Source of the DNA: Gammaproteobacteria bacterium
Lineage (GTDB): Bacteria; Pseudomonadota; Gammaproteobacteria; UBA4575
Reading direction: 5' to 3'
NCBI GenBank assembly: GCA_965243395.1
Contig: CBDEUS010000002.1
Coordinates: 107,444-171,443 of the forward strand
DNA: 64,000 bases
Shown here: positions 18,809 to 51,155 of the stretch, piece after piece
Numbering within the stretch: position 1 is the stretch's first letter
Layout: each line of letters opens with the position of its first letter
Made by a program: the position numbers and the translations under genes
Notes under the pieces: generated by a model
The model's input: the letters and a program-made list of their open reading frames with translations, nothing else
Database searches by the model: none
What the model was told of the DNA's origin: nothing

Positions 18809-18821
18809 ATAATGCCCCTTA

Positions 18822-19478: not shown

Positions 19479-19493
19479 TTAAACCTTCTTCTC

Positions 19494-20180
19494 TTAGCCT
19501 TTTTTCTCAGCCTTAATTTTTGCCAAACGTTCTTTTATTCGATTTTGATGACTTAATTTATCAAGCTCTGCTATTTGTGCTGCAGTCTTTGTATCGGTAG
19601 TGCTTGATGAAGATGGTCCAATCCCGGTTCCTTTTTCCATAATTCGATCAAACGCTTCTTGAGCCTTCTCAACTTTTGCAACTACATCAGAGGAGCCGCT
19701 AATAGTTTTTCCATCTTCTTGCTTGGTTACAGTTTGCTTTCTACTTTCAACAAAGCTTCGAAGCTCTTCCCTCATCTCACGCTTTTTAGCTTTCAAAGCA
19801 ACAATATATCCTTCAAGCTCTTTTTCGCTTTCTGTTGCTTCAGTAATGCTTTTTTCTAATACTGGAATTTGTGCTTCAATATTTATCTGTTGTGCAATAG
19901 CTGCTTCTGCAAGATCATCACGCCCTTCATTAACAGCAAATTCAATTTTTTCAGATAAATCTTCATATTTTTTGTTTTCTTCCATCATTCTTTTATTCGC
20001 TAAATGACGGTTGGCTACTACAGTTCCTAATTCAGAGCGCACATCATATATTGCGCTGTCTATTTCTCTAATCGCTTCTTCCATCACTAGGTCTGGTGCA
20101 GAATTCTCTATAGAGTCAATGATTGCATTGATCCCACCACTCAAAATTCGCCCAACACGTGAACTAATACTTTCGCTCAT
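19494..20180 (-). CDS. PspA/IM30 family protein
   Basis: 228 aa all-helical, N-terminus like PspA (RVGRILSGGINAIIDSIEN...), heptad repeats. Confidence 0.7.
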   Translation of the reverse strand: MSESISSRVGRILSGGINAIIDSIENSAPDLVMEEAIREIDSAIYDVRSELGTVVANRHLANKRMMEENKKYEDLSEKIEFAVNEGRDDLAEAAIAQQINIEAQIPVLEKSITEATESEKELEGYIVALKAKKREMREELRSFVESRKQTVTKQEDGKTISGSSDVVAKVEKAQEAFDRIMEKGTGIGPSSSSTTDTKTAAQIAELDKLSHQNRIKERLAKIKAEKKG

Positions 20181-20182
20181 TA

Positions 20183-20689
20183 CTATGTCTCCTTAATTAA
20201 CTTCGTTTCATTGTCTAGCAAGCGTAATAGCTGTATGTATGTATTAAGCTTGTTTCTAAATATATTCTTTCGAGTAGTATTCGTACTTTGAATAACACCA
20301 AGATGAATCGTCCTCTCGAATAATCTTGATACCCGCTCCATCAATTCATTTTCAAATTCTTGACAACTTAATATGTTTTCCACATTTCTACCTGATGAAA
20401 TGAAGTAAGCTAATATTTCTGCTATTGAATCTCGAATAGGCTCTATAACTTGTGAGTAAGTGTTTTCATCATGCTGAACCTGTTTTATTTGCCTCGATAT
20501 AGGTAGTAAATAGTTCTCAATATTCGTCAGCACTTCACTGTAGTCACTACCGCTCAGATCAGATTTTCGTTTCTCTTTTATTATCGCTCGAATTTTGTCA
20601 CTTGGTGTTTTAGCACCTTCGATATCCAAATTAGCAATAAACTCAGCGTCTTCATGCGAAATTCGCACGCTTAGTGGAATAGTCTTCAT
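20183..20689 (-). CDS. hypothetical protein with N-terminal ribbon-helix-helix-like motif (candidate operon regulator)
   Basis: 168 aa; beta-strand-then-helices pattern LSVRISHEDAEFIANL; stop overlaps pspA-like start. Confidence 0.4.
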   Translation of the reverse strand: MKTIPLSVRISHEDAEFIANLDIEGAKTPSDKIRAIIKEKRKSDLSGSDYSEVLTNIENYLLPISRQIKQVQHDENTYSQVIEPIRDSIAEILAYFISSGRNVENILSCQEFENELMERVSRLFERTIHLGVIQSTNTTRKNIFRNKLNTYIQLLRLLDNETKLIKET

Positions 20690-20743: not shown

Positions 20744-21019
20744 TTGTCAACAAATATCATATGGGTACAACAAACCACAATAATACAAATAGTTACAAAT
20801 TATCTAAATAGCTAAAAATGACGCTCGACTGGAATTATTAAGTCTCTATCAGTTTTTGATCACACTGCAAAGACGGATATTGAGAAATAAACATTAAAAA
20901 TTTGAGTAGATTAAGGGAGATGTACTCCTCTAATCACCTCAGAATTGGCGTATTGATAACGACTAGTTAGTGAATACCACTTATCTGGATAAGAATATCC
21001 ACCTAATTTCCACCAAATT

Positions 21020-28200: not shown

Positions 28201-28368
28201 CTTATTGTTCTTGTGCCCCAGCTAAATATACATCTACATTCTATATGTGATTAGCCGACATGTATTCATCGGATCAATAAATTTAAGCCAAATAAAAACA
28301 GTAGATTACGATTTATATGACTCTTGTTTGAATAATATCCACCGTACTTCCACCAAAGTATTGATTAT

Positions 28369-29151
28369 CTATACCCAAGTGCTATTCAAGGTATCCCTAA
28401 AATAGTTATTTAAACCCTCAGCTTCAGCCTCAGAGCTTTTTTGAGCAAATTTTGTGTCCTCTAATCGATTTAATTCAGATTCAATAAACTCATTTAGTAC
28501 TGTAATCTTTTCTGAAGTATCTTTCTCAAATCCAGATTTTTTTCGCTCTAGCAAGTTATTTATGGCACTAAGAAGCTTATTGTCATCAACTAACTTTTCT
28601 ATTAGTTTGGAAAATTCAGTGGGCACCACGCCATAATCATTTTCTATCCATTGCACTGCTAATAATGGGCGAAGAACATAAAAATATTTTTTTAAACGAA
28701 CTTGTTCTTTCTGCAAATGCTCTTTATATGTTCTTTTAGCCATACTTAAATAATGATAGGCGCATGAAACTGGTGAAAAACTTTTTGGGAGTAAGTTTTG
28801 AAACCCATCAGAAAATTTTTCCTTATCTTTATAGACAATAGGAGACCCTATCCACTCAATCAAAGGTGGATTAGATTTTCGTAACAATCCGAGTGCCTTT
28901 CTCAGATCCCAACCATTTATATCAAGCAAATCATCTATAGGTAATTCGATCACATCTCTTTTGTGTTCAAGATCAATAGATAGATACCACTCAGGTGGAT
29001 GTATATAAATAAAACGTACGTCAAAATCACTATCTTTAGATGCAAACCCCCACGCTCGACTACCCGATTCACAGGCATACAAAACTTGAACATTATATTC
29101 ATCTTCAATTTCATCAAGCTTTTGAAGGATCTCTTCTTTTCTTTCTATCAT
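28369..29151 (-). CDS. Pol-beta-superfamily nucleotidyltransferase (RtcB-associated RlaP-like family)
   Basis: GS...D.D motif in CESGSRAWGFASKDSDFDVRFIY; ~260 aa; operonic with rtcB. Confidence 0.5.
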   Translation of the reverse strand: MIERKEEILQKLDEIEDEYNVQVLYACESGSRAWGFASKDSDFDVRFIYIHPPEWYLSIDLEHKRDVIELPIDDLLDINGWDLRKALGLLRKSNPPLIEWIGSPIVYKDKEKFSDGFQNLLPKSFSPVSCAYHYLSMAKRTYKEHLQKEQVRLKKYFYVLRPLLAVQWIENDYGVVPTEFSKLIEKLVDDNKLLSAINNLLERKKSGFEKDTSEKITVLNEFIESELNRLEDTKFAQKSSEAEAEGLNNYFRDTLNSTWV

Positions 29152-29473: not shown

Positions 29474-30670
29474 CTATCCTTTTACACATACAACTTGACG
29501 CAAAGTGTGTTCAACGCTTACTAAATCATTTTGGTTTTCCATCACCACATCAATATCTTTATATGCGCCAGGAATTTCATCTAACACACCTTTGTCTTTA
29601 CGACATTCAACACCAGCCGTTTGCGCTTCAATATCTTCTTCATTGAAATGGCGTTTTGCTTTACCACGACTCATACGTCGACCTGCACCATGCGAACATG
29701 AACTAAATGATTCAGGGTTACCTTTGCCACGAACAATGTAAGATTTAGCGCCCATACTACCCGGAATAATTCCAAGCTCATCCACACCAGCACGAATCGC
29801 ACCTTTGCGTGTAATGTAAACATTTTCACCAAAATGGTTTTCCATAGACACATAATTATGATGACAATTGATGGCTTCTTTAGTGATACCAAATTTCGGT
29901 AACACTTTTTTTAATGCATCAATTATCAAGCGCATCATTTCTTTGCGATTTTCCATTGCGTAATCTTGAGCCCAGTTCACTGCATTTACATAGTCATCAA
30001 AGTGCTCTGCCCCTTCAGTAAAATATGCTAAATCTTTATCTGGCAAATTATGAATATGCTTTTGCATATCTTTTTGTGCTAATCGAATAAAGAATTGGCC
30101 AATAATATTCCCTACTCCACGGCTACCCGAATGAAGCATAATCCATACATCATTATTTTCATCTAAACAGATTTCAATAAAATGATTCCCACCACCAAGT
30201 GTGCCTAGTTGACGCACCCAAGTTTGATAAGGCTTTTTCTGCATCTTTAAAAGTTTGGGGTGTTTTTCTAGTAAGCGATCTAAACCGTCAGATAAAGGTC
30301 GTATAGTTGAATTGCGAGCTTTATCTGACTTATGCATATCAAAACCAACAGGTATTGCAACTTCAATAGCAGTACGCACTTTGCGTAAGTTATCTGGAAG
30401 ATCATTAGCATTCATTGAAAGACGCAAAGCATTCATTCCACAACCAATGTCTACACCAACCGCAGCAGGAATAATTGCACCTTTACATGGAATTACCGAA
30501 CCCACAGTCGCACCTTTACCAAAGTGCACATCCGGCATCGCCGCAATATGACTATGGATAAAAGGCAACTGTGATAGGTTGCATAGTTGCTGGTAGGCTT
30601 CGTGCTCTATGTCATCAGTATAGATTTTTACTCGCACATTACCTTTGGTAATGACTTTTTTAATTGGCAT
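29474..30670 (-). CDS. rtcB: RNA-splicing ligase RtcB
   Basis: 398 aa with RtcB metal/GTP-binding His motifs (HNYVSMENHFGENVYITRKGA, GSMGAKSYIV, SCSHGAGR). Confidence 0.85.
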   Translation of the reverse strand: MPIKKVITKGNVRVKIYTDDIEHEAYQQLCNLSQLPFIHSHIAAMPDVHFGKGATVGSVIPCKGAIIPAAVGVDIGCGMNALRLSMNANDLPDNLRKVRTAIEVAIPVGFDMHKSDKARNSTIRPLSDGLDRLLEKHPKLLKMQKKPYQTWVRQLGTLGGGNHFIEICLDENNDVWIMLHSGSRGVGNIIGQFFIRLAQKDMQKHIHNLPDKDLAYFTEGAEHFDDYVNAVNWAQDYAMENRKEMMRLIIDALKKVLPKFGITKEAINCHHNYVSMENHFGENVYITRKGAIRAGVDELGIIPGSMGAKSYIVRGKGNPESFSSCSHGAGRRMSRGKAKRHFNEEDIEAQTAGVECRKDKGVLDEIPGAYKDIDVVMENQNDLVSVEHTLRQVVCVKG

Positions 30671-30718
30671 ATGTCACCCTAATTAATCTCTAAAATATTC
30701 ATTTCTATTAGAACCATC

Positions 30719-30884
30719 ATGTCGCTTTTTCTTCAAGCAACAATTCTTGAAATCTACGCCCTGATCCACATACACATGGATCATTCCGGCCGAACTTCTC
30801 GCTAAGTTCTTTATTGCCATGAACGATTCTATTTCCTCGTTTAACGTTTGTTTCTGATGGGAATCCTTTACGACGTTTACTCAT
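30719..30884 (-). pseudogene. small SEC-C-motif-like ORF, apparently frameshifted
   Basis: minus strand: [55 protein letters not shown]; the +1 frame after CGSGRR reads [13 protein letters not shown], completing CxCGSG...K.CC only with a frameshift. Confidence 0.25.
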
Positions 30885-31426: not shown

Positions 31427-32575
31427 CTACCCATCAACTTTGATTTGTACCGTGTCTTTTAGGATGCCATCCAAACCTCCGAAGACAGTTAGTTTGTCTA
31501 CTTTGTCAGTGACTTTTTCCAACGTCTCCAACTCTTTCAAGCGCATCAAGGTTGGGTTGTCATCCATCAATTTCGCAGTGTTCAACAATGAACGTGTAGC
31601 TGCAGTTTCTTCACGTCTTTTAATGACATTTGCTTGCGCCACTTTTTCTGCTTGAACTACTTGGTTCAAGATATCTTTCATGTCGCCTGGCAAAATGACA
31701 TCTTTCACGCCAACGCTGCGAATTTCGATACCGTATTCAGATACGTTTGCTTTAACAGATTCGTAGACGTATTTGTCTAGTTCATCTTTAGTTACAAGCA
31801 ATGCATCCAAAGTGCGTGTACCAATTACCTGACGAAGTGCAAATTGCATTTCGCGGTAAATGTATCCAGCAAGGTCTACCAATTCATGACGCGCTTTAAT
31901 TGGGTCACGAATTTGATATTGAGCTGACAAGTTTGCACGTAGGCTAACTTTGTCTTTTGTCAAAACCTCTTGACCTTGCACTTCCATGCTTTGCATTCGC
32001 AAATCAACTTGTTCAACTATTACGTTGCGGTTGTATTTCCAGTATGCGTACAAGCCTGGTTGCAATGATTCTTTTAATTCACCATCCACAACCAATAGGC
32101 CAACATAGTTGTCTGCAACTTCTGCGATGTAAATTGAATTAATCAATTCACTTGGTACTTGTTTCGCACGTGTGTGCACAAACTGACCCACTTTATTTGC
32201 AGGCAATGCAAAATCTTCTGCAATATTTTGCACTTCAACTGTCATTTCAACTGGACCTTTCCAAAATAATTGGCGTGTACCAGGTGCTACAACAGTGCTC
32301 AATTGGCCACGTTGATAAACCAATCCAACTTCATATGCGTCGGTTTCAACAACTTGGAAGTATTTTGTTACTATCTCAGGTTGTTCTTTTACCAAGACAT
32401 CCACATATTTGTGGTTGAATTGCGCTTCCGTTACATCATAAATCTCGACTTGAATTCGGCCGAAAATATCGAAATATCGATATACGCCTGGTTCAAGCAC
32501 TTTTACAATGCTTCGGTTTTTCAAGTAAATTCCTCGCTCATGCTGCGCAATAACAATTCTTTTAAATCCGAACAT
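31427..32575 (-). CDS. SPFH/band-7 domain protein (soluble, no N-terminal TM)
   Basis: 382 aa; SPFH core then coiled-coil with DVILPGDMKDILNQVVQAEKVAQANVIKRREETAATR. Confidence 0.65.
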   Translation of the reverse strand: MFGFKRIVIAQHERGIYLKNRSIVKVLEPGVYRYFDIFGRIQVEIYDVTEAQFNHKYVDVLVKEQPEIVTKYFQVVETDAYEVGLVYQRGQLSTVVAPGTRQLFWKGPVEMTVEVQNIAEDFALPANKVGQFVHTRAKQVPSELINSIYIAEVADNYVGLLVVDGELKESLQPGLYAYWKYNRNVIVEQVDLRMQSMEVQGQEVLTKDKVSLRANLSAQYQIRDPIKARHELVDLAGYIYREMQFALRQVIGTRTLDALLVTKDELDKYVYESVKANVSEYGIEIRSVGVKDVILPGDMKDILNQVVQAEKVAQANVIKRREETAATRSLLNTAKLMDDNPTLMRLKELETLEKVTDKVDKLTVFGGLDGILKDTVQIKVDG

Positions 32576-32836: not shown

Positions 32837-32895
32837 CACAAAATGCGGATTCGAACCGCAGGCTTTCGCCATTACCAATGAACAACGTTTAAAGT
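32837..32895 (-). other. tRNA-like remnant (T-arm TGCGG-ATTCGAA-CCGCA) without a foldable anticodon arm
   Basis: clear T-arm; downstream sequence does not form anticodon or D arms. Confidence 0.25.
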
Positions 32896-32897
32896 TG

Positions 32898-32969
32898 TCG
32901 AAAGAACAGGAATCGAACCTGCAACATTTCCGTTATCAGCGGAATGCTCTCCCTTTGAGCTATCTTTCA
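32898..32969 (-). tRNA. tRNA-Ile (anticodon GAU), CCA not encoded
   Basis: minus-strand cloverleaf: T-arm ACAGG-AATCGAA-CCTGC, anticodon arm TTCCG/TTATCAG/CGGAA (anticodon GAT), D-arm GCTC...GAGC. Confidence 0.55.
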
Positions 32970-33193
32970 CTGGTGTATCGGACCACTTACAACTTTGTAT
33001 ACACATTGCAATCACCTTTCGGCTTAGCTTTTGTGCACAGGTCTGAATTCAAGAATCAGATCCGCTAAGTAAATAAATGTCTCTCAATACTCATGAACTC
33101 AATGTTTATAAAACATCGAATTACAATTCTTTAAATACAGGTGACCTGCCCCATTGCAGGCCACCATTTTTCACGCCCCCTTTCTCCTAAAAT

Positions 33194-33760
33194 TTAACGT
33201 CGCTCTTTAGGACATTGTGTTTTCAAGAACGCCATTTGGTCTGCCAAAATTTTGCGGTTAGATAAAATCAATCCTTCTGCATAATTTGGCTCATATGGAA
33301 TTCCTAATAATGAAATTCCTATTCTTTCTGCCTCACTAGGCATTAAGCTATCTTTACGTGCATTACATGCACGGCATGCTGTAACCACATTCATCCATGT
33401 GTTTTTCCCACCACGTGATAGTGGAATCACATGATCGCGCGTTAAGCGATTTCGAGAATATTGATCACCGCAATACATGCACATGTAATCATCACGTCGA
33501 AACAATCTTGCATTTGTCAGTGCAGGCACTTCACGAATGTGGTCGTCTGATCGCATCACACCATGTGTTGCAACAATACTGTTCACATCAATAAATGAAC
33601 GAGTTCTTGTTCTGCGATTTACACCACCATGAATACGAAAAGAATTTGAACCCATTTCGTAAACAACTTGTTCTCGTGCATACACTAATGCTGCATATTC
33701 CCAGTTCATCCATTCAACTGGACGCCCAGCTACGTCTAAACGCAAAATTAAATTTTCCAT
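33194..33760 (-). CDS. HNH endonuclease (free-standing, within tRNA array)
   Basis: CMYCGDQYSRNRLTRDHVIPLSRGGKNTWMNVVTACRACNARK = HNH C-x2-C...H...N...C-x2-C motif. Confidence 0.8.
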   Translation of the reverse strand: MENLILRLDVAGRPVEWMNWEYAALVYAREQVVYEMGSNSFRIHGGVNRRTRTRSFIDVNSIVATHGVMRSDDHIREVPALTNARLFRRDDYMCMYCGDQYSRNRLTRDHVIPLSRGGKNTWMNVVTACRACNARKDSLMPSEAERIGISLLGIPYEPNYAEGLILSNRKILADQMAFLKTQCPKERR

Positions 33761-33820
33761 TTAACTTTTCTCTTTTATAAAGTTACTGTTTAACAATTTG
33801 GATGATTGAAGAGTTTAATT

Positions 33821-33897
33821 TGGTACGCAGCCCCAGATTTGAACTGGGAATCAAGTAGGTTTGAGCTACTCAGGTCTTCCAATTGCCTCAGCTGCGC
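33821..33897 (-). tRNA. class-I (77 nt) tRNA with Leu anticodon CAA
   Basis: TGG-T-acceptor ACGCAGC, T-arm CCCAG-ATTTGAA-CTGGG, 5-nt variable loop, anticodon arm AGTAG/GTTTGAG/CTACT (anticodon CAA, U33 A37), D-loop with GG, A73. Confidence 0.6.
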
Positions 33898-33909
33898 AAA
33901 AATTTAATT

Positions 33910-33986
33910 TGGTATCCCTGGCAAGATTCGAACTTGCAACATTCTGGTTTTAAGTCAGATGCGTCTTCCGGTTGCGCCACAGGGAC
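33910..33986 (-). tRNA. class-I (77 nt) tRNA with Leu anticodon UAA
   Basis: T-arm GCAAG-ATTCGAA-CTTGC, 5-nt variable loop, anticodon arm TCTGG/TTTTAAG/TCAGA (anticodon TAA), A73. Confidence 0.6.
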
Positions 33987-33997
33987 GTAATGTAATT

Positions 33998-34076
33998 TGG
34001 TAGCCACCCTCGGATTTGAACCGAGATGCACCATGTTCTAAGCATGGTAGGTATGCCAATTCCCGTCAGATGGCCA
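33998..34076 (-). tRNA. class-I (79 nt) tRNA with Leu anticodon UAG
   Basis: T-arm CTCGG-ATTTGAA-CCGAG, 5-nt variable loop, anticodon arm CCATG/TTCTAAG/CATGG (anticodon TAG); acceptor closes with two G-U pairs. Confidence 0.55.
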
Positions 34077-34118
34077 AAATTTTTATTTTTATAATTTAGT
34101 TATACATAAATTATGATT

Positions 34119-34193
34119 TGGTACCCCTAGTAAGATTCGAACTCACATCAACTGATTTAGAAGATCAGTGCTTTTCCAATTAAGCTATAGAGG
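34119..34193 (-). tRNA. tRNA-Arg (UCU)
   Basis: T-arm GTAAG-ATTCGAA-CTCAC, anticodon arm CTGAT/TTAGAAG/ATCAG. Confidence 0.65.
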
Positions 34194-34217
34194 TAAAAAA
34201 CTAATTGAATTATTTTT

Positions 34218-34313
34218 GGTACCCCAACCAAGATTCGAACTTGGATCTACCACTAATCTGGTGCGTGAATCACGGGATATAAATCCGCTGCTTTACCGTT
34301 AAGCTATTGGGGC
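34218..34313 (-). tRNA. 96-nt tRNA-like gene with intact acceptor, T and D arms but no canonical anticodon arm
   Basis: acceptor ACCCCAA/TTGGGGC, T-arm CCAAG-ATTCGAA-CTTGG, D-arm GCTT-TACCGTT-AAGC; 61 nt between T and D arms with only a CGTGA-A-TCACG mini-hairpin; best weak fold gives anticodon UAU. Confidence 0.4.
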
Positions 34314-34322
34314 AAAATTTTT

Positions 34323-34396
34323 TGGACACTCCGCTCAGAATTGAACTGAGTCCTCAAGGGTTGCAACCTTGCGTCTTGCCGATCGACCACGGAGTG
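34323..34396 (-). tRNA. tRNA-Cys (GCA)
   Basis: T-arm CTCAG-AATTGAA-CTGAG, anticodon arm CAAGG/GTTGCAA/CCTTG, U73 discriminator. Confidence 0.7.
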
Positions 34397-34472
34397 TTGG
34401 CACATCCGGAAAGATTTGAACTTTCATCTTTGGGTTTGGAGGCCAATGTTCTGCCAATTGAACTACAGATGC
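34397..34472 (-). tRNA. tRNA-Trp (CCA)
   Basis: T-arm GAAAG-ATTTGAA-CTTTC, anticodon loop TTTGGAG (anticodon CCA), D-arm GTTC-TGCCAATT-GAAC. Confidence 0.65.
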
Positions 34473-34474
34473 TC

Positions 34475-34550
34475 TGGCTGGGAGTCCTGGACTCGAACCA
34501 AGATCTCAAGAGTCAAAGTCTTGCGTCTTAACCAGTTAGACGAATTCCCA
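34475..34550 (-). tRNA. tRNA-Gln (UUG)
   Basis: T-arm CCTGG-ACTCGAA-CCAAG, anticodon arm CAAGA/GTCAAAG/TCTTG. Confidence 0.7.
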
Positions 34551-34559
34551 TTTTTGTTT

Positions 34560-34635
34560 TGGCGCGGTTGGAAAGACTCAAACTTTCATCTTCGACTTTC
34601 GTAGAGTCGTGCTTTATCCGATTAAGCTACAACCG
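34560..34635 (-). tRNA. tRNA-Arg (ACG)
   Basis: T-arm GAAAG-ACTCAAA-CTTTC, anticodon arm CGACT/TTCGTAG/AGTCG, acceptor GCGGTTG/CAACCGC. Confidence 0.7.
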
Positions 34636-34644
34636 CAAAAACTT

Positions 34645-34720
34645 TGGTAGCCCGAATCCGATTCGAACGGATAACTTTCGCTTTGTAAGAACGACACTCT
34701 GCCAATTGAGTTATCGGGCT
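34645..34720 (-). tRNA. tRNA-Val (UAC)
   Basis: T-arm ATCCG-ATTCGAA-CGGAT, anticodon loop TTGTAAG, acceptor AGCCCGA/TCGGGCT. Confidence 0.65.
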
Positions 34721-34728
34721 AAAATTTT

Positions 34729-34800
34729 TGGTAGTTACGGTTAGAATCGAACTAACAAGTCCAGGGTTATGAGCCCTAGCCGAAGACCACTTCCGTAACT
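34729..34800 (-). tRNA. tRNA-Met (CAU), initiator-like anticodon stem, shortened D-arm
   Basis: RNA anticodon arm TAGGG-CTCATAA-CCCTG (GGG/CCC stem as in initiators); only 12 nt between anticodon arm and acceptor (4-bp stem, 4-nt loop); total 72 nt. Confidence 0.5.
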
Positions 34801-34808
34801 AAAGTATT

Positions 34809-34882
34809 TGGTGGATCCAGTAGGAGTCGAACCTACCTCTGCGGGTTAAAAGCCCGCTGCACAACCGCTATGCCATAGATCC
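34809..34882 (-). tRNA. tRNA-Lys (UUU)
   Basis: T-arm GTAGG-AGTCGAA-CCTAC, anticodon arm GCGGG/TTAAAAG/CCCGC. Confidence 0.7.
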
Positions 34883-34883
34883 T

Positions 34884-34959
34884 TGGCACGCCTGAAAGGA
34901 GTTGAACCTTTATCTCACTGGTTCGAAGCCAGTGGCTCTTCCAATTAAGCTACAGACGT
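34884..34959 (-). tRNA. tRNA-Arg (UCG)
   Basis: T-arm AAAGG-AGTTGAA-CCTTT, anticodon arm ACTGG/TTCGAAG/CCAGT. Confidence 0.65.
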
Positions 34960-34961
34960 AT

Positions 34962-35052
34962 TGGCGGAGAAGAACAGATTCGAACTGTTGAATGAAAAAT
35001 TTCCATCCCTCCTTTAGCAAAGGAGTGCTTTAAACCACTCAGCCACTTCTCC
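34962..35052 (-). tRNA. tRNA-Ser (GCU), class II
   Basis: 91 nt; T-arm AACAG-ATTCGAA-CTGTT, 19-nt variable arm, anticodon arm CTCCT/TTAGCAA/AGGAG. Confidence 0.7.
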
Positions 35053-35112
35053 AATTTATAATTTGCAGCGCTTCGCGATATTTAATTTGCGAGTAATACC
35101 CACTCGCAAGCG

Positions 35113-35188
35113 TGGGGTGAACTACCGGACTCGAACCGGTATCTACCAGATTCACGTTCTGGGGCTTTGCCATTAAGCTAAGCTCACC
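35113..35188 (-). tRNA. tRNA-His (GUG) with encoded G-1 and C73
   Basis: T-arm ACCGG-ACTCGAA-CCGGT, anticodon arm CCAGA/TTCACGT/TCTGG (anticodon GTG, position 33 = C), C73, extra 5' G at 35188. Confidence 0.65.
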
Positions 35189-35199
35189 ATAATTATTTT

Positions 35200-35291
35200 T
35201 GGCGGAAGGCGGAGGGCACGATCCCCACCAACTAAAAAGCCAGCCACCAGTTTTCAAGACTGGGACACCCCCACTGGGTGAATCACCTTCC
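35200..35291 (-). tRNA. tRNA-Ser (UGA), class II, non-canonical T-loop
   Basis: 92 nt; anticodon arm CCAGT/TTTCAAG/ACTGG; T-loop reads GCACGAT rather than ATTCGAA. Confidence 0.5.
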
Positions 35292-35316
35292 TTATATATG
35301 TAAATTTGGAGCGGAT

Positions 35317-35391
35317 AATCGGATTCGAACCGATATTTATGGTTTGGAAGACCATCACTCTGCCAATTGAGTTATACCCGCAGATTTGGTC
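35317..35391 (-). tRNA. tRNA-Gly (UCC)
   Basis: T-arm ATCGG-ATTCGAA-CCGAT, anticodon arm ATGGT/TTGGAAG/ACCAT. Confidence 0.7.
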
Positions 35392-35396
35392 TGAGT

Positions 35397-35474
35397 GGCT
35401 GGATTCGAACCAACGACCTCTCGCTTCCAAGGCGAGTACTCTGCCCAGGCTGAGCTACACTCAGAGAATTAATT
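35397..35474 (-). tRNA. tRNA-Pro (UGG)
   Basis: T-arm GCTGG-ATTCGAA-CCAAC, anticodon arm CTCGC/TTCCAAG/GCGAG, acceptor CTGAGTG/CACTCAG. Confidence 0.65.
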
Positions 35475-35491
35475 AAATATAAAAAATTATT

Positions 35492-35567
35492 TGGTGCATC
35501 GAGTTGGACTTGAACCAACGACCACACGATTATCGGTCGTGCGCTCTACCAACTGAGCTATCGATGC
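35492..35567 (-). tRNA. tRNA-Ile (GAU)
   Basis: canonical D-arm GCTCTACCAACTGAGC, T-arm GTTGG-ACTTGAA-CCAAC, anticodon arm CACGA/TTATCGG/TCGTG (anticodon GAT, position 33 = C), acceptor GCATCGA/TCGATGC. Confidence 0.7.
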
Positions 35568-35568
35568 T

Positions 35569-35644
35569 TGGTGTTCCTGACCAGAATTGAACTGGCATCT
35601 CGAGTTTGAAAGACTCGTGACCTCACCATTAGTCGACAGGAACT
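35569..35644 (-). tRNA. tRNA-Glu (UUC)
   Basis: anticodon arm CGAGT/TTGAAAG/ACTCG, acceptor GTTCCTG/CAGGAAC. Confidence 0.7.
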
Positions 35645-35657
35645 AATAAAATATTTT

Positions 35658-35733
35658 TGGCGGACCCGATCGGACTCAAACCGACATCCCCTTTATCGAC
35701 AGTAAAGTGCTTTATCAATTAAGCTACGAATCC
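35658..35733 (-). tRNA. tRNA-Asp (GUC)
   Basis: anticodon arm CTTTA/TCGACAG/TAAAG, T-arm ATCGG-ACTCAAA-CCGAC. Confidence 0.65.
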
Positions 35734-36088
35734 AACTTTTGTTTAAAGGTTGAGACTATGCCTTTAAAAATCACTCTTTTGTTGAAGTACCTAACGCATT
35801 GCTGTGCGATAGTTGCCAACGTGTCCACATTACCCTGGTTGCTCCAGCGATTATGTTAGTGATCATGACTGCTTTTTTTAAAGTGTAGCGATTCACTTGT
35901 CGCGTTAATCTATTCAGCTATTCACTTACCGAGAACCTTGCCAGGCTCTAAACGGAGGCTATCCGAACGTGCAATGAAGTAACTAAAGTTCTTTGGCTTG
36001 CGACCGCAGAATCTTCCATGTTCCCAAGTGGGCATGGACTTAAGTCATTTTCAATTAACACCGAGACGCGTCTTTGCGTTTCACCGTA
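35734..36088 (-). other. 355-nt non-coding spacer inside the tRNA array; candidate structured or stable RNA
   Basis: no minus-strand ORF, no recognisable tRNA; short palindromes AGACGCGTCT and TGATCA. Confidence 0.25.
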
Positions 36089-36165
36089 TGGTGATCTATG
36101 TGGGAGTCGAACCCACGACCTATTGATTCTAAGTCAATCGCTCTACCAATCTGAGCTAAAAGATC
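36089..36165 (-). tRNA. class-I (77 nt) tRNA with Leu anticodon UAG (second copy)
   Basis: T-arm GTGGG-AGTCGAA-CCCAC, 5-nt variable loop, anticodon arm ATTGA/TTCTAAG/TCAAT (anticodon TAG), canonical D-arm, A73. Confidence 0.6.
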
Positions 36166-36605
36166 AGGTACTACTAAGACGTGCACGTCTCAGTTGCTTC
36201 ATTATTTTTTGAATAACGAAATACAACACGCCTTTTGTCTTTCCTCTGCCGAGTACTTAACCGAATATTCGGATCATGGCTTCCACCCATTTCCCTAATA
36301 ATCTGCACAACCGCACTTGTCTGCAAAACTCGTACTATGTTGTACTACCTGTTATCTCTCGTAGTACGCAATCTAGTATCACGGGTTACAGCACTACCTG
36401 TATCTTTCTCACGACCCGTATTCCCAAGTAAACCTGGTACGTCAATCGTGGTACTTCCGCGTATTGCTTGGCTACTATTGCCGATTGAATTACGACAACA
36501 TGGAGACCAGGCTTGCTTGGTTTGACCTACTTTGAAAAGTGGGCGAAATACCGTAGTCGTATTCCTTTCCTATCGTTGCCGATAGTTATCGTGCCAAGCC
36601 ACATA
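36166..36605 (-). other. 440-nt non-coding spacer inside the tRNA array; candidate ncRNA
   Basis: no minus-strand ORF; 14-bp perfect palindrome AGACGTGCACGTCT at 36176-36189; + strand ORFs here are antisense and implausible. Confidence 0.25.
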
Positions 36606-36681
36606 TTTGGTGGAGGATCACGGATTTGAACCGTGCGCCTTCTGTTTGCAATACAGACGCTCTGCCAACTGAGCTAATCCC
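36606..36681 (-). tRNA. tRNA-Ala (UGC) with G3:U70
   Basis: anticodon arm TCTGT/TTGCAAT/ACAGA; acceptor strands GGGGGAT/ATCCTCC give the G3:U70 Ala identity pair. Confidence 0.75.
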
Positions 36682-36690
36682 CCAAACTTA

Positions 36691-36765
36691 TTTGGCTGCG
36701 ACGGTTGGACTCGAACCAACATTGCTTCGCTTAACAGACGAATGTTCTACCATTGAACTACATCG
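36691..36765 (-). tRNA. tRNA-Asn (GUU)
   Basis: anticodon arm TTCGC/TTAACAG/ACGAA, T-arm GTTGG-ACTCGAA-CCAAC. Confidence 0.65.
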
Positions 36766-36775
36766 CAATTATATT

Positions 36776-36852
36776 TGGTGCATCAGGATGGATTCGAACC
36801 ACCATCGCGTCGGGCTTCAACCGACCGCTCTACCCATTGGAGCTACCGATGC
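36776..36852 (-). tRNA. tRNA-Phe (GAA); sequence differs from the att-site Phe fragments
   Basis: anticodon arm GTCGG/GCTTCAA/CCGAC, D-arm GCTCTACCCATTGGAGC; its T-arm and acceptor differ from the 14005/47417 repeats. Confidence 0.7.
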
Positions 36853-36860
36853 AAAAATAA

Positions 36861-36945
36861 TTGGTGGAGAGAGATGGATTCGAACCACCACGCTAATAAT
36901 TAGCACTGGGTTACAGCCAGCGTGTCTCACCAATGACTGTCTCTC
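36861..36945 (-). tRNA. tRNA-Tyr (GUA), class II
   Basis: 85 nt; 15-nt variable hairpin ACGCTAATAATTAGC; anticodon arm ACTGG/GTTACAG/CCAGC. Confidence 0.65.
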
Positions 36946-36959
36946 CTAAAGTTAAAACT

Positions 36960-37035
36960 GGAGCTGGTGATAGGCGTCGAACCTACAACCTACTGCTTAC
37001 AAAGCAGTTGCTCTGCCATTTGAGCTACACCAGCA
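36960..37035 (-). tRNA. tRNA-Thr (UGU)
   Basis: anticodon arm ACTGC/TTACAAA/GCAGT, acceptor GCTGGTG/CACCAGC. Confidence 0.7.
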
Positions 37036-37039
37036 AAAA

Positions 37040-37075
37040 ATATGGGACAGTCGCACATGCGCACAACTCAACTTA
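37040..37075 (-). promoter_or_regulatory. candidate sigma-70 promoter for the tRNA array
   Basis: minus strand reads TTGTGC-N18-TATTTT about 7 nt upstream of the first tRNA 5' end; weak match. Confidence 0.25.
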
Positions 37076-37161
37076 GGAGTTGGGCATAATTTAAAAATTA
37101 AATTACGCACTGCCCCGCCTACTTCAATCATCCAAATTGTTAAAGAGCTACTGCCAGGACT

Positions 37162-37204
37162 AAAAAACCCCGGAAGGCGAACCTAACCGGGGTTTTATTT
37201 TGAT
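37162..37204. terminator. bidirectional rho-independent terminator hairpin
   Basis: AAAAAACCCCGGAAGGCGAACCTAACCGGGGTTTTATTTT: 8-bp GC-rich stem flanked by an A-run and a T-run; separates gene 37495-38148 from the tRNA array. Confidence 0.6.
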
Positions 37205-37494
37205 TCCGGAAGGCTCGCAACGCGCACCCTCCGAATTAATTTGGAAGGTACTACGTAATTGGGTCCTCTAAGGTGGCCCCAATAAAATTATTTGTGCCGA
37301 GATTCGATATCTCATGCACAGCAACACACCACAAAAAACACGACGGCTTTAATAACCGCTGCATTAGTTGCGCTGAAAAACTAGTTGTATATGTACTTCT
37401 ATTCATAGTGCGCGAAAGTCTAATGATATGGATTTTAAAGTCAAGTAATATTTTACTAAGTAAAGTGTGAATTTACGCCCAATTATCGGCCAAA

Positions 37495-38148
37495 TTAATC
37501 CTCAAGGGCTGACAAAAAAGAAATCATTGCTTTACGTTGTTTTTCATTTAAAGAGAGTGATGCAGAAATTATTTCTTGAATGTCCGTTAATTGTTTTTGA
37601 AATTCTTTATTGTTCAATTCTTTAGGTGCTTCATCCAACCAACCTACTGGTTTTTTTGCTGCAACTTCAATTCCTCTTGCAAACTCATCACTCATGCTTG
37701 GAATAAATGGTGTTTTGTAATGTTGTTGAAATAATTCCCATGATACTCCTGCTGATTCACATTCTTTTTTAGAACAAACCTTATTACCAGACTTTCCACA
37801 TAGGGTCTTAAAGTTTGTAAATCTAACGATTTGAAGAAATGGGTCTAAGTTTTTTACAGGAGCAGTGCCAAATAATAACCAATTGGTGGAATATCCAGTA
37901 ACTTTGCTAATACCTTCAATGATTTTTAAATTTGGGTTTTGTGGAGCCGACGTTTCGTAAAGAGAAAGAAGTTGTTTTGACACCTTTAGTCTTCTTTTTT
38001 TCAATAATTGCATCATCTCACTTGGATCAATGCCATTAACTACACGTGCAAAACGCACCCTTGATGAAACTGTAGCTAATTCATTTTTTCGTTTTGAACT
38101 ACTAGTTGATTTTTTGGAGACACGACGTTTAGATTTATTTTTTACCAT
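37495..38148 (-). CDS. hypothetical protein with strongly basic N-terminus
   Basis: 217 aa; N-terminal MVKNKSKRRVSKKSTSSSKRKNE; no recognisable domain. Confidence 0.45.
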   Translation of the reverse strand: MVKNKSKRRVSKKSTSSSKRKNELATVSSRVRFARVVNGIDPSEMMQLLKKRRLKVSKQLLSLYETSAPQNPNLKIIEGISKVTGYSTNWLLFGTAPVKNLDPFLQIVRFTNFKTLCGKSGNKVCSKKECESAGVSWELFQQHYKTPFIPSMSDEFARGIEVAAKKPVGWLDEAPKELNNKEFQKQLTDIQEIISASLSLNEKQRKAMISFLSALED

Positions 38149-47585: not shown

Positions 47586-48881
47586 ATGAAAAAAGTGCAA
47601 GGGTGGTGCAAAGTTCGCTACGAGGATTTTTTGGAGGATGACCATATGAGTAAACATCAAATCCACTTAACCAAACACGATGTACAAAACTATCCACGAC
47701 CCGAACAAGGAATGCTTCGATTGTGGGACAGCGAGATTGAAGGTTTGTATGTTTTAATTCCAGCTGCAGGAAAACGAACCGCATACTTTCGTTATCGCAT
47801 TCAAGGACGCCAACGTGATTTTCGCATTGGTCGCATCGATCGTCTGAGCTTGAAGGCAATACGTGATGAAGCCAAAAAGTGCGCCGCGAGAGTCGAGCTT
47901 GGCCAAGACATACAAGAAGCCAGAAATGCAGCTAAGCTTGCGCTACGTGAAGCCAAAAATAATCAAGGTGCGCCCAATCTCCAATTGTTTGGAGACTTCT
48001 ATCAACACTATTACATCGATTATGCAAAAGCGACACTGAAAGATTATCGAAAACGTCTACGAGCCATCGAATTTAACTTTTCACAATGGTTTGATAAACG
48101 TTTAGATGAAATCAATGTGCCGTTAGTGGCTAGTTGGCGTAATCACAAACTGGCAACACCTGTTACAGTAGGCAAAGGCGACAATCAAAAACAACGTGAA
48201 CGTACTACCGGCGCGATCAATCGACCGGTTGGCTATTTGAAAGCGCTACTCTCCGTTGCTTATGAAGAAGCGGAGCTTTTGGATCATCACCCTCTTGATC
48301 GACTCAAACCTTTGAAAGAACCTCGACACAAGCGTGATCGGTTCTTAACCAATGAAGAATTTAAACGTTTACGTAATAGTTTGCGCGGACGTGATGATTA
48401 TCTACCGGTTTTAATAGAACTGGGTATTAACACAGGTTTGCGTTTGAATGAGATGCTCACCTTAGAATGGGGATCAGTTGATTTACGTAATCAGACGCTG
48501 ACGGTGGAAAGTCATTACGCCAAAAGCAAACGCAAGCGAACCGTTCCACTCAATAATTCGATTACCGCAGTCATACGTGATTGGAAACTTCGTACTCAAC
48601 GCTTTGGTCCATGGGTATTCACCAATCCGAATACCGATAATCACTACGTCTCCATTTACCGCGCATGGAATACAGCGATGCAAGAAGCCGGCATTGAAAA
48701 CTTCGTGCGTCATGATTTACGCCGTACCTTTGGCAGTTGGCTCGCCGAACGCGGTGAGAGCATTTATGTGATTAAGAATTTACTCGGACACTCCAGTGTG
48801 AAAGTCACCGAAGAAAGTTATGCGTATCTACAAGACAAATCTCAACGCGATGCGGTAGAACGCCTTGAAGCGATCGCATAG
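47586..48881 (+). CDS. int: tyrosine recombinase, P4-type integrase
   Basis: 431 aa; C-terminal catalytic box HDLRRTFGSWLAERG...LLGHSSVKVTEESYAY (R, H-x-x-R, Y). Confidence 0.85.
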   Translation: MKKVQGWCKVRYEDFLEDDHMSKHQIHLTKHDVQNYPRPEQGMLRLWDSEIEGLYVLIPAAGKRTAYFRYRIQGRQRDFRIGRIDRLSLKAIRDEAKKCAARVELGQDIQEARNAAKLALREAKNNQGAPNLQLFGDFYQHYYIDYAKATLKDYRKRLRAIEFNFSQWFDKRLDEINVPLVASWRNHKLATPVTVGKGDNQKQRERTTGAINRPVGYLKALLSVAYEEAELLDHHPLDRLKPLKEPRHKRDRFLTNEEFKRLRNSLRGRDDYLPVLIELGINTGLRLNEMLTLEWGSVDLRNQTLTVESHYAKSKRKRTVPLNNSITAVIRDWKLRTQRFGPWVFTNPNTDNHYVSIYRAWNTAMQEAGIENFVRHDLRRTFGSWLAERGESIYVIKNLLGHSSVKVTEESYAYLQDKSQRDAVERLEAIA

Positions 48882-50396: not shown

Positions 50397-51155
50397 TTAT
50401 TCAGAAAAAAATTCTTTTATAATATATTCACTACCTGAAATTATATTTTCATATAAAGCAAATGAAAAACTTAATAAACTTAATAATAATAATATCAAAA
50501 TCACTATCCTAACTGGCTTTCGTATAGTCGAGTACCTCCCAAATACCTCCCAAAATAATTCACGCTCAACCTCTTTAGTCTGTTCTATATCAAGCTCATT
50601 ATCTGAATTTAATATAGGCATGCCTAAAGAATAAATTTTACTTTTGTACTCAAAATATAGTACTGATTGATTTTCTTGAACATTAACTAATGGTATATCA
50701 GAAGCCTTAATGCCAAAATTTGATAATTCAGACTTACTTAGCTCTTTTATATATCCTTTTGTTTTTATTCTTTCAAAAAATTTTGGGAGCTCACTTTTTG
50801 CTTTCACAATATCTAATGAAATCCATGCAATCCAGCGTGGAGCATGTTTGTGAGACTTATAATCTGAAAATGATGAGTATGTCTTGATAAATTTTGGGCA
50901 AAATATCATATAAAGTATATATGCAATGACAAAAAACAAGGATGCAGCCCAAAGATATTGCCATGTAAATGGAAGTTGAAAATTTATAGTTAACGAAGAA
51001 TTTTCATTAACTTTGAATATAACTTGCTCGGGAACATTTTCTAATATTTTTGCAATTGCAGGTACAATTGCAAACCAAGCCACAAGATAGCGAAATACAG
51101 TTATATTAAATTTTTCGTTATACCATTGCCAATGAGAATATACATTATTCAACAT
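50397..51155 (-). CDS. hypothetical membrane protein (partner of radical-SAM gene)
   Basis: 252 aa; TMs at N-terminus, middle and C-terminus; start overlaps the radical-SAM stop by 7 nt. Confidence 0.45.
   Translation of the reverse strand: MLNNVYSHWQWYNEKFNITVFRYLVAWFAIVPAIAKILENVPEQVIFKVNENSSLTINFQLPFTWQYLWAASLFFVIAYILYMIFCPKFIKTYSSFSDYKSHKHAPRWIAWISLDIVKAKSELPKFFERIKTKGYIKELSKSELSNFGIKASDIPLVNVQENQSVLYFEYKSKIYSLGMPILNSDNELDIEQTKEVERELFWEVFGRYSTIRKPVRIVILILLLLSLLSFSFALYENIISGSEYIIKEFFSE

Follow-up and report, generated by a model that had tools for sequence, protein, structure and literature searches.

The window analyzed here is a 64,000-nucleotide (nt) stretch of the genome of an uncultured gammaproteobacterium of the UBA4575 lineage (GenBank assembly GCA_965243395.1, contig CBDEUS010000002.1, positions 107,444 to 171,443), and its minus strand carries a dense series of tRNA genes at 32897–37034. 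The present study suggests that this series is probably an accessory, horizontally acquired tRNA array of the phage-type L-array class, in which 26 tRNA genes and one further tRNA held within a full-length GOLLD RNA are bounded at the 3′ end by an HNH endonuclease gene and fused, in the same orientation, to a repair module containing the RNA ligase RtcB. L-arrays have been described as horizontally spread, supernumerary sets of up to 43 co-oriented tRNA genes in non-periodic order, near enough to one another for co-transcription, with an HNH neighbor and with rtcB nearby, and that of Anabaena is induced by translational stress (Santamaria-Gomez et al.; PMC8421152). Six other contigs carry the same module as the window (loci L001, L002, L082, L083, L164, and L165), and comparison with these and with viral relatives of the HNH endonuclease underlies much of what follows.

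Composition of the tRNA Array

At default settings ARAGORN finds 25 tRNA genes in 32897–37034, all on the minus strand. The Rfam tRNA model gives 25 matches of at least 29 bits in the same interval, 23 from the gathering-score run and two, tRNA-Tyr (36.7 bits) and a gene with anticodon CAU at 34732–34800 (30.8 bits), added by the E-value run. Combined, the two tools yield 28 tRNA-type genes, all on the minus strand and 23 of them detected by both; Leu-CAA (33821–33897) and Leu-UAG (33998–34075) are seen by ARAGORN only, and the CAU gene and a gene of 94–97 nt at 34217–34313 by Rfam only. The anticodon call of the last is ambiguous in the window and unstable in relaxed ARAGORN runs; its orthologs in L002, L082, and L083 are called Ile-UAU. 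The gene at 35200–35291 has a sub-threshold score of 32.8 bits on the tRNA-Sec model (match 35204–35291) and is called Ser-UGA by relaxed ARAGORN; its L082 ortholog is called at default settings. Together the 28 genes cover all 20 amino acids, and 27 of them encode the 3′-CCA. They comprise 26 array tRNAs, one tRNA embedded in the GOLLD RNA, and one tRNA-Ile(GAU) of the band 7-associated type (b7a-tRNA) that lies beyond the HNH gene.

The array proper falls into two blocks. Block 1 (36608–37034; ARAGORN and Rfam) reads Thr-UGU, Tyr-GUA, Phe-GAA, Asn-GUU, Ala-UGC, an order that is identical in L001 and L083 and, without Thr, in L082. Block 2 (33821–35733; ARAGORN at default and relaxed settings, and Rfam) has 21 genes in the order Asp, Glu, Ile-GAU, Pro, Gly, Ser-UGA, His, Ser-GCU, Arg-UCG, Lys, CAU, Val, Arg-ACG, Gln, Trp, Cys, long-arm UAU, Arg-UCU, Leu-UAG, Leu-UAA, Leu-CAA. 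Spacers between tRNA genes measure 1–60 nt, the exceptions being those that flank GOLLD (355 and 442 nt) and the HNH gene (851 nt). The 27 same-strand genes lie within 3.2 kb and their order is never repeated, which is the arrangement of an L-array.

An earlier, sequence-only reading of this DNA had described 28 minus-strand tRNA genes that serve all 20 amino acids, are interrupted by an HNH gene, and lie next to RtcB. The combined ARAGORN and Rfam set upholds the count over 32897–37034, most members (25) being accepted by ARAGORN at default settings; the anticodons it had obtained by accurate hand-folding match the ARAGORN/Rfam list exactly, and that list confirms the coverage of all 20 amino acids. 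The HNH gene (33194–33760, Pfam HNH_5) and RtcB (29474–30670) are likewise present as claimed. Its use of the strong preference for U at the wobble position as a sign of an AT-rich donor did not hold up, this preference being expected anyway of a set with one tRNA per codon box and hence unspecific. GC content was also tried as evidence of foreign origin and was rejected, because tRNA genes raise GC in any AT-rich genome.

Two features of the array recur elsewhere. The ∼95-nt tRNA(UAU) with a long variable arm (34217–34313), an unusual shape for an isoleucine tRNA, is found across these arrays and in viral contigs (L098 4815–4908, L100 2496–2589, L104 9878–9972, L109 9850–9943, L116 4456–4551, and L121 4036–4130), and in many of the viral contigs it is the gene directly preceding the HNH endonuclease. 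A double-hairpin element of ∼50 nt, CGCTTGCGAGTGGGTATTACTCGCAA...ATCGCGAAGCG, is repeated within tRNA spacers (window 35060–35115; L001 8023–8079 and 9891–9937; L083 ∼7065–7115 and ∼7515–7570) in copy numbers that differ among related arrays; so small an element could be mobile or could take part in processing.

A Full-Length GOLLD RNA Within the Array

Two stretches of the array had previously been set down as noncoding spacers. They are in fact the two halves of a single GOLLD RNA, interrupted by an embedded tRNA. Positions 35747–36234 of the minus strand match the GOLLD family (RF02032) over model positions 1–416 of 416 at 153.5 bits, against a gathering score of 150, with E = 4.7e-41. This is the strongest Rfam match in the window, above any tRNA, and the orthologs in L001 and L082 score 155.8 and 155.0 bits. 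In GOLLD RNAs, according to PMC12286853, the conserved 3′ domain is preceded by a 5′ domain of ∼400 nt that is less well conserved. Correspondingly placed in the window are 373 nt (36235–36607), with 279 positions that do not vary among the window, L001, and the diverged L082. RNAalifold finds eight pairs in this domain that are kept through changes on both sides, its fold has a z-score of −2.65 relative to shuffled sequences, and parts of it match viral GOLLD-like RNAs from hidden Markov model positions 47 and 178 onward. Because these 373 nt are conserved, compensated, and fold better than shuffles, and because they adjoin the Rfam match, the spacers constitute one GOLLD RNA of ∼861 nt (35747–36607, minus strand), located between tRNA-Ala and tRNA-Asp and made up of the 5′ domain followed by the Rfam-matched hairpin, linker, and 3′ domain.

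GOLLD RNAs assemble into a 14-mer cage, occur near phage and prophage tRNA islands, and sometimes carry a tRNA in the linker (PMC12286853; PMC12990946). The linker tRNA of the window (36089–36165, minus strand) has a class-I body and the anticodon UAG, scores 71.1 bits with Rfam, and is also called by ARAGORN. Its body is near-identical to that of its L082 counterpart (11924–11998), which has the anticodon CCA in place of UAG, and tRNAs also lie inside the GOLLD-like RNAs of the viral loci L103 (8495–8566), L105 (7493–7564), and L096 (5502–5576), with the anticodons UAG, CUA (amber-suppressor type), and UAA. From these sequences the anticodon of the embedded tRNA appears free to change, which would be odd for a decoding tRNA.

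No GOLLD is found at E ≤ 0.001 with Rfam in L002, in L083, or in L004, a further chromosomal locus with an HNH gene and tRNAs, and nine viral loci with large arrays have none at the gathering score. The RNA is thus optional in such arrays. L004 holds, between tRNA-Ala and tRNA-Asp (127–487), an element of ∼360 nt whose similarity to GOLLD is confined to the 5′ domain (nhmmer E = 2.3e-15 and 1.7e-5). It has no 3′ domain, which suggests that the 5′ domain is able to exist alone. When the GOLLD region of the window was compared by blastn with 50,697 phage records, only the embedded tRNA matched.

The HNH Gene and the RNA Repair Block

Downstream of the array, on the same strand, follow the HNH gene, tRNA-Ile(GAU), a Band-7 gene, a 128-amino acid (aa) open reading frame (ORF), orf55, RtcB, a 99-aa ORF, and RlaP. 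The HNH endonuclease (33194–33760; 188 aa; Pfam HNH_5 at E = 1.7e-16, HNH, and HNH_4) belongs to a family of 4662 proteins at E ≤ 1e-10, which occurs in at least 598 species, mostly represented by gamma- and betaproteobacterial metagenome-assembled genomes (MAGs), with one genome per species scanned. Among 40 chromosomal HNH loci scanned, 38 are without a tRNA array, the two exceptions being L002 and L004; the family was for this reason rejected as an array marker on chromosomes.

RtcB (29474–30670, minus strand; 398 aa) matches its Pfam family at 437.9 bits and the PHROG tRNA splicing ligase family at 505.9 bits. The SPFH/Band-7 protein (31427–32575; 382 aa; Pfam Band_7 E = 7.9e-28) is of slipin type, its homologs being named slipin or PA4582-like. 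RtcB and Band-7 lie on the same strand in the window, and the pair also occurs in L001 and L083. The 55-aa product of orf55 (30717–30884, minus strand) bears a SEC-C zinc motif (Pfam E = 7.8e-6), is conserved in L001, L002, and L082, and is always encoded directly upstream of RtcB in this lineage. RlaP (28369–29151, minus strand; Pfam 322.4 bits), the RNA-ligase-associated Pol-beta nucleotidyltransferase, stands beside RtcB only in the window among the loci seen, being absent from L001, L002, L082, and L083. RlaP enzymes add 1–2 nt to damaged RNA 3′ ends and restore the chargeability of repaired tRNA (PMC12776372; PMC7824862).

In some bacteria the neighbors of the RtcB gene are a Band-7 gene and the predicted gene of a "band 7-associated tRNA," which looks very much like a genuine tRNA, according to the summary of Burroughs and Aravind (2016, NAR 44:8525) given in bioRxiv 10.1101/312249. 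The tRNA-Ile(GAU) at 32897–32969 (minus strand; 64.5 bits with Rfam) fits this description by its sequence and position, rather than that of an array member. It lies directly upstream of Band-7, is parted from the array by the HNH gene, and has no CCA. The gene was found in all three Band-7 loci checked (window, L001, and L083) and in neither of the two Band-7-less loci (L002 and L082), and it is still directly upstream of Band-7 in L083, where the order of RtcB and Band-7 is reversed. In L004 a tRNA-Met lies ∼440 nt upstream of the Band-7 homolog. The previous listing of two tRNA-Ile(GAU) genes in the array was therefore half right: both genes are real, but only one belongs to the array; the other, at 32897–32969, is set apart from it by its missing CCA, its place beyond HNH, and its co-occurrence with Band-7. 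The neighboring "T-arm remnant" of that account is neither a decayed tRNA nor an attachment (att) site; it is a T-arm-like hairpin (32837–32890, minus strand; terminator-like match 32860–32844) of the conserved Band-7 leader, whose element GGCGAAAGCCTGCGGTTCRAATCCGCA also occurs 3′ of the b7a-tRNA in L083.

The window thus shares with the RtcB–Band-7–b7a-tRNA system, as far as its published summary describes it (bioRxiv 10.1101/312249), an RtcB gene beside Band-7 and a tRNA-like noncoding RNA, and differs from that summary in that these are attached to a 27-gene tRNA array with GOLLD. RlaP is a further ligase-associated partner present in the window (PMC12776372; PMC7824862). A second SPFH system, composed of flotillin, a YqiJ (NfeD-like) protein, and PspA, lies 11 kb from the module (17039–20689), and in L083, too, a flotillin gene is found near the array.

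Related Loci and the Origin of the Module

In L001, an 823-kb contig, the HNH protein is identical to that of the window, the tRNA order is the same, and nucleotide identity is 94–97% from unk217, a gene upstream of the array, to RtcB; the genes on both flanks are unrelated to those of the window, and a PcfJ gene is inserted between Band-7 and RtcB. L002 is an Arenicellales MAG and the nearest named relative (HNH 79%). Its array is cut by a DDE transposase, with ∼15 tRNAs left, and lacks GOLLD and Band-7; with the array so reduced, the missing tRNAs must be encoded elsewhere in that genome. L082, from a metagenome, contains unk217, at least 18 tRNAs, GOLLD, HNH, orf55, and RtcB. The 20 tRNAs of L083 follow the window order, but tRNA-Ala is immediately adjacent to tRNA-Asp, which leaves no GOLLD between them; HNH, RtcB, tRNA-Ile(GAU), and Band-7 come after the array. 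Two short contigs, L164 and L165, contribute the upstream region. Common to these loci is a module of a small ORF, an array with or without GOLLD, HNH, Band-7 and b7a-tRNA in some cases, and RtcB, in varying flanks and with varying tRNA content; tRNA number across related arrays ranges from 12 to 28. Module proteins are 72–91% identical between the window and L002 or L082, as against ∼47–63% for the adjacent Sacchrp_dh and DUF2269 genes. Judged by this comparison, the module is an old accessory unit of its lineage, partly dispensable, variable, and better conserved than its surroundings, and not a fresh insertion.

Arrays of the same kind also occur in viruses. Relatives of the HNH protein, with 42–52% identity, are encoded on 255 IMG/VR contigs. 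Of the 60 loci that were scanned for tRNAs, 23 hold at least 5 and up to 33, and several have 20–33 on the same strand as HNH. Six viral loci have a GOLLD-like RNA upstream of HNH (nhmmer with a profile of window-type GOLLD, E = 1.5e-51 to 3e-15), and in L103, L105, and L096 it has a tRNA inside. In the large viral contigs L103 (4835–5980) and L105 (5432–6595), which also have several strong PHROG matches, a gene for an Rnl-type RNA ligase is found just upstream of the GOLLD-like RNA, tRNAs, and HNH; this linkage mirrors that of RtcB in the window with a different ligase family. Megablast of the interval from 30 to 40 kb of the window against the 50,697 phage records gave no match. CUA tRNAs ("Pyl" in ARAGORN) occur in viral L085, L091, L093, L094, L096, L103, L105, L119, L131, and L132; being of amber-suppressor type, they suggest stop-codon reassignment or suppression in those phages.

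The surroundings of the module in the window are chromosomal. They encode transporters, of the ABC type and others, flotillin, YqiJ, PspA, a histidine kinase, a GH3-family enzyme, and desaturases and hydroxylases of fatty acids, and database records place the module proteins on a contig of 1.3 Mb. Virion genes are absent from the window, as are phage structural, packaging, or lysis genes from the ∼10 kb on either side of the module. The att-like tRNA-Phe fragments that had been proposed to flank the array are not there: the window has no tRNA-Phe fragment repeat, and no convincing direct repeats flanking the module or the integrase segment were found in it. The sole integrase (47586–48881, plus strand) is 10 kb away with unrelated genes between. 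With no att repeats, an integrase in another segment, and no virion genes, the module does not have the makeup of an integrated prophage or integrative island. A broader notion of an accessory, foreign, phage-like origin is nevertheless sustained by the varying flanks, by module proteins that are more similar than their neighbors, and by the viral relatives of HNH, GOLLD, and tRNA(UAU). Speaking for horizontal spread are the unrelated L001 flanks, the excess similarity of module proteins, and the viral relatives; speaking against it is the neighborhood shared with L002 and L082. The array tRNAs average 50% GC, compared with 61–73% for chromosomal tRNAs of other gammaproteobacterial loci, and from this and from the half-empty L002 copy broken by an insertion sequence (IS) we infer that the array is supernumerary to the host tRNA set.

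The array is very improbable as the main, vertically conserved tRNA operon of the organism. Related arrays with the same order are present in all relatives found, and the array is part of a chromosomal neighborhood common to L002 and L082, as such an operon would be. Yet the L002 copy is IS-broken with roughly half of its tRNAs missing, the arrays range from 12 to 28 tRNAs, each codon box has a single tRNA, the Leu-type tRNAs are odd, and GC is 50%; moreover, the single CAU gene is weak, and gene order and HNH are common to viral arrays. An alternative is that the module is the decaying remnant of a prophage tRNA island, without host function and persisting by chance or through a selfish HNH. 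GOLLD, the HNH family, and the ∼95-nt tRNA(UAU) are all typical of viral contigs, several tRNAs are noncanonical, content varies between relatives with one copy IS-disrupted, and L-arrays are reported to be poorly expressed in the few cases studied (PMC8421152). We nonetheless consider this unlikely, given the lack of phage genes around the module and the extent of what has been preserved: across lineages with only 66–78% protein identity the GOLLD 5′ domain retains 279 invariant positions together with compensated pairs, stems and CCA are intact in 27 of the 28 tRNAs, seven loci share the conserved leader ORF, terminator, and inverted repeat described below, and the linkage to RtcB is seen in every contig that reaches that far.

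Several observations weigh against our view of the module as a horizontally acquired and functional accessory array. Among its members are two Leu-type genes missed by Rfam, the CAU gene at 30.8 bits, and the long-arm UAU, and such noncanonical tRNAs may in part not be chargeable, to go by their sequences. The four tRNAs with leucine anticodons (33821–33897, 33910–33986, 33998–34075, and 36089–36165) are 77–78 nt long and without the long variable arm of bacterial tRNA-Leu. The GOLLD score exceeds the gathering score by only 3.5 bits, yet the E-value is ∼1e-41 and two orthologs also pass. Finally, the Sacchrp_dh/DUF2269 neighborhood is common to the window, L002, and L082, and this indicates long residence and vertical descent in the lineage, not recent insertion.

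Two other elements of the window lie outside the module. A lone tRNA-like gene (52593–52667, minus strand; Rfam 45.9 bits; CCA encoded) with an abnormal anticodon loop (4-base "cagc" in ARAGORN) adjoins a radical-SAM gene (51149–52375, minus strand); the tyrosine integrase at 47586–48881 (plus strand) lies 4 kb away in a higher-GC segment, with no att repeat found. A 24-nt motif, ATATCCACCTAATTTCCACCAAAT, has three intergenic copies that are 83–100% identical (20995–21018, 28335–28358, and 54814–54837), one of them just downstream of RlaP.

A Leader ORF, Candidate Attenuator, and Inverted Repeat Upstream of the Array

Between unk217, or its replacement, and the first tRNA, all seven loci have a small ORF followed by two hairpins, the second an intrinsic terminator. 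In the window the leader ORF (37251–37406, minus strand, in the ORF list) encodes 51 aa and uses all 20 amino acids, as do only 2.3% of 51-aa windows of the proteins encoded in this DNA. Orthologs of 48–58 aa in the six other loci are 22–90% identical to it, one with an in-frame insertion of seven codons, and the seven ORFs hold 20, 20, 20, 19, 19, 19, and 20 distinct amino acids. A sigma-70-like promoter motif, TTGACT-16-TAGACT (37417–37444, minus strand), precedes the ORF, and the arrangement TTGACW...TAxACT recurs before it in L001, L002, L082, L083, L164, and L165. The ATG, which in all seven loci comes ∼10 nt after the −10 hexamer, is not preceded by a Shine-Dalgarno sequence, and translation would be from a nearly leaderless mRNA. 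From the terminator to the first tRNA, the minus strand showed no further promoter-like site.

The region 3′ of the ORF (37162–37253, minus strand) resembles an attenuator. Its segments A (37243–37251), B (37224–37235), D (37205–37215), T5 (37182–37196), and T3 (37164–37177) can pair either as A:B and D:T5 or as B:D and T5:T3, of which T5:T3 is the intrinsic terminator. In five sequences both sets are ∼99% pairable, compared with 25–69% when the partners are slid along one another. The nascent RNA, up to the terminator loop, is predicted to fold as A:B and D:T5, and masking 15 nt at the stop codon leads to B:D with T5 free; this switch is predicted in five of six distinct loci (window, L002, L082, L083, and L164).

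Just downstream lies the upstream arm of a 31-nt inverted repeat (37122–37152), which is 90% complementary to an arm at 33781–33811, between the last array tRNA and the HNH start codon, so that the repeat brackets the main array. Its 22-nt core occurs twice in the window, with 0.01 copies expected. Changes in one arm are mirrored in the other: in L002 both have a one-base deletion and the end GAAG reads GATAT in each, and in L083 the core becomes GATTTTTGATG in both, with two mismatches that are G·U on the sense strand. The predicted arm duplex has z-scores of −5.0 to −6.5 in four loci, −6.5 in the window. Read-through transcription of the array would place both arms on one RNA, whose ends they could pair as the processing stems of rRNA operons do. 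Between the upstream arm and the first tRNA, all loci have a conserved structured leader, GGCGGGGCAG ... CTGYCCC (37035–37121, minus strand), in which a T/C change in the 3′ arm keeps a pair as G·U or G-C.

From these features a new kind of attenuator can be envisaged, in which a leader ORF containing all 20 amino acids would sense the integrity of the tRNA pool, ribosome stalling would switch on the back-up tRNAs, GOLLD, and repair genes, and the duplex would mark the array for excision. This is a tentative possibility, of appreciable weight but short of probable. It would have in common with attenuators of the trp/his type a short ORF followed by mutually exclusive hairpins, one an intrinsic terminator, with ribosome position deciding between them; it differs in that there is no run of a single amino acid but 19–20 of the 20, and in that the regulated genes would be tRNAs. 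Unlike in trp, the absence of all translation would give read-through, the opposite default.

A number of results count against the attenuator. The switch is not predicted in L165. The minimum-free-energy fold of the full-length RNA is the terminator form except in L082, where the two forms are within 0.1 kcal/mol, and the antiterminator lies within 5 kcal/mol in L002 and L082 only. Covariation is thin, with one fully compensated A:B pair (A-U to G-C), which 141 of 500 shuffles equal, and the loci compared are related to each other. The leader ORF might instead encode a functional small protein. As to the inverted repeat, it is degraded in L082 (z = −1.6), and co-varying arms are also expected for paired protein-binding sites or for terminal repeats.

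Each of these last two options has a place in a rival account. In the first, a DNA-binding repressor, unk217 or another, would act on the arms as operators, in the manner of TrcR of Anabaena, and the small ORF would be unrelated. The 217-aa unk217 protein (37495–38148, minus strand) is encoded directly upstream and has weak matches to helix-turn-helix (Pfam HTH_3, E = 0.008) and phage-repressor (PHROG, E = 7e-5 to 8e-3) families; the core TTGGATGATTG is conserved as sequence in both arms, one of which precedes the array and the other HNH; and TrcR represses the array, HNH, RtcB, and slipin in Anabaena (PMC10272220). The gene is conserved upstream of the array in L001, L002, L082, L164, and L165. 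It is missing from L083, which still keeps the leader ORF, attenuator, and inverted repeat. There is, moreover, no promoter-like site beside the upstream arm, and in L083 and L164 arm sequence drifts with complementarity kept. Repressor control is a real but rather doubtful option. As a core part of the module unk217 was dropped, having seven relatives among 5.8 billion proteins, a single locus in the metagenome scan, and no counterpart in L083.

The second account makes the array an actively mobile cassette that spreads selfishly, either with the inverted repeats as its termini or through a homing HNH that copies it into tRNA or RtcB loci. The array fits exactly between the two arms of the repeat, which vary in concert from locus to locus, HNH lies just outside, the L001 flanks differ, and homing-endonuclease-driven spread of tRNA clusters is the model put forward in the literature (PMC8421152; PMC6582537). 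Against this, the block shared with L001 runs from unk217 to RtcB, far beyond the repeat, which has no target-site duplication or transposase beside it; the G·U identity of the two L083 mismatches favors an RNA duplex; and the same HNH family is found without an array in 38 of 40 chromosomal loci. We regard an active cassette as distinctly unlikely.

Relation to Known Systems

In the Mycobacterium mucogenicum group, horizontally acquired clusters of ∼32 tRNAs with GOLLD, a tRNA-like gene inside it, HNH, the rare isoacceptors Ile-TAT and Arg-TCG, and short-loop Leu-TAG are described in the relevant passages of Behra et al. (2019; PMC6582537), and GOLLD arrays in Mycobacterium are also the subject of Morgado et al. 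(2020, RNA Biol 17:1001), as cited in PMC12286853. The window matches the former in its ∼30 co-oriented tRNAs, its GOLLD with an embedded tRNA-like gene, HNH, Ile-UAU, Arg-UCG, and short-loop Leu-UAG, and a phage origin has been inferred there as it is here. It differs in its host, a member of the Gammaproteobacteria rather than the Actinomycetota, and in the embedded tRNA, which has a good tRNA score in the window (71 bits) and is a pseudo-tRNA in the Mycobacterium description. The window array is also physically joined to RtcB, Band-7, b7a-tRNA, and RlaP and preceded by a conserved leader ORF and terminator, none of which those passages mention for Mycobacterium.

The trn operon of Anabaena PCC 7120 is a long, non-periodic, horizontally spread array with an HNH neighbor and with rtcB enriched nearby (PMC8421152, where GOLLD is not mentioned). 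The RHH repressor TrcR has a regulon consisting of the trn array, HNH genes, RtcB, and slipin, which respond together to translational stress (PMC10272220). Whereas the Anabaena partners are scattered and tied together by TrcR, those of the window are contiguous, and their proposed control is the leader-ORF attenuator. Large-phage tRNA islands offer a third comparison. In phages, many tRNAs are found in the company of RNA ligases, RlaP, and end-healing enzymes, a combination that counters defenses which cleave tRNA (PMC7824862), and the tRNA cluster of T4 has the homing endonuclease SegB, as cited in PMC8421152. The HNH/GOLLD/tRNA neighborhoods of L103 and L105 resemble that of the window, but the latter belongs to a chromosome, is flanked on either side by genes of transporter, lipid, and regulator functions, is without virion genes, and has RtcB where the viral loci seen have an Rnl-type ligase. 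Since the window contains all of the listed features of the Mycobacterium clusters and has the partners of the Anabaena regulon side by side, it falls into a known class, here combined with the described RtcB–Band-7 system. Clusters like this are, then, already known from other bacteria, and the window is a rich further example.

Implications for the Biology of tRNA Arrays

The block could serve as a back-up for damaged translation, and a model of its expression, function, attenuation, and processing can be set out on that basis. If anticodon nucleases, toxins, antibiotics, or starvation should cut or deplete host tRNAs, the array would supply one tRNA per codon box for all 20 amino acids, and RtcB, with RlaP, would re-seal and trim broken tRNAs. 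GOLLD would be carried on the same transcript as the array. Transcription may start, though this is the weaker part of the model, at the promoter of the nearly leaderless 51-aa ORF. Ribosomes that finish this ORF would cover segment A, so that B:D and the terminator form and the array stays off; a ribosome stalled anywhere within it would leave A:B and the D:T5 antiterminator to form, and polymerase would read into the array. The two arms of the inverted repeat would then form a duplex of 23–31 bp that joins the ends of the 3.3-kb array transcript and might serve as a processing site.

GOLLD has been without a function in the literature since 2009, and its 14-mer cage structure is now solved. 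The loci described here offer a natural comparison of arrays with GOLLD (window, L001, and L082), without it (L083), and with a 5′-domain-like piece only (L004). RNA-ligase genes are tied to the array in every case compared, and the viral relatives keep the same company of RNA ligase, GOLLD, tRNAs, and HNH, an association that supports the view that GOLLD belongs to a response to tRNA damage. The array, HNH, RtcB, and slipin, linked in Anabaena only by a shared repressor, are gathered in the window in one place, which provides independent genomic support for that grouping. If the attenuator model is true, the module would act as a general monitor of whether the tRNA pool is intact, with direct control over a replacement set, GOLLD would be placed in a defined stress response, and the sensing of translational stress by otherwise silent L-arrays would be explained.

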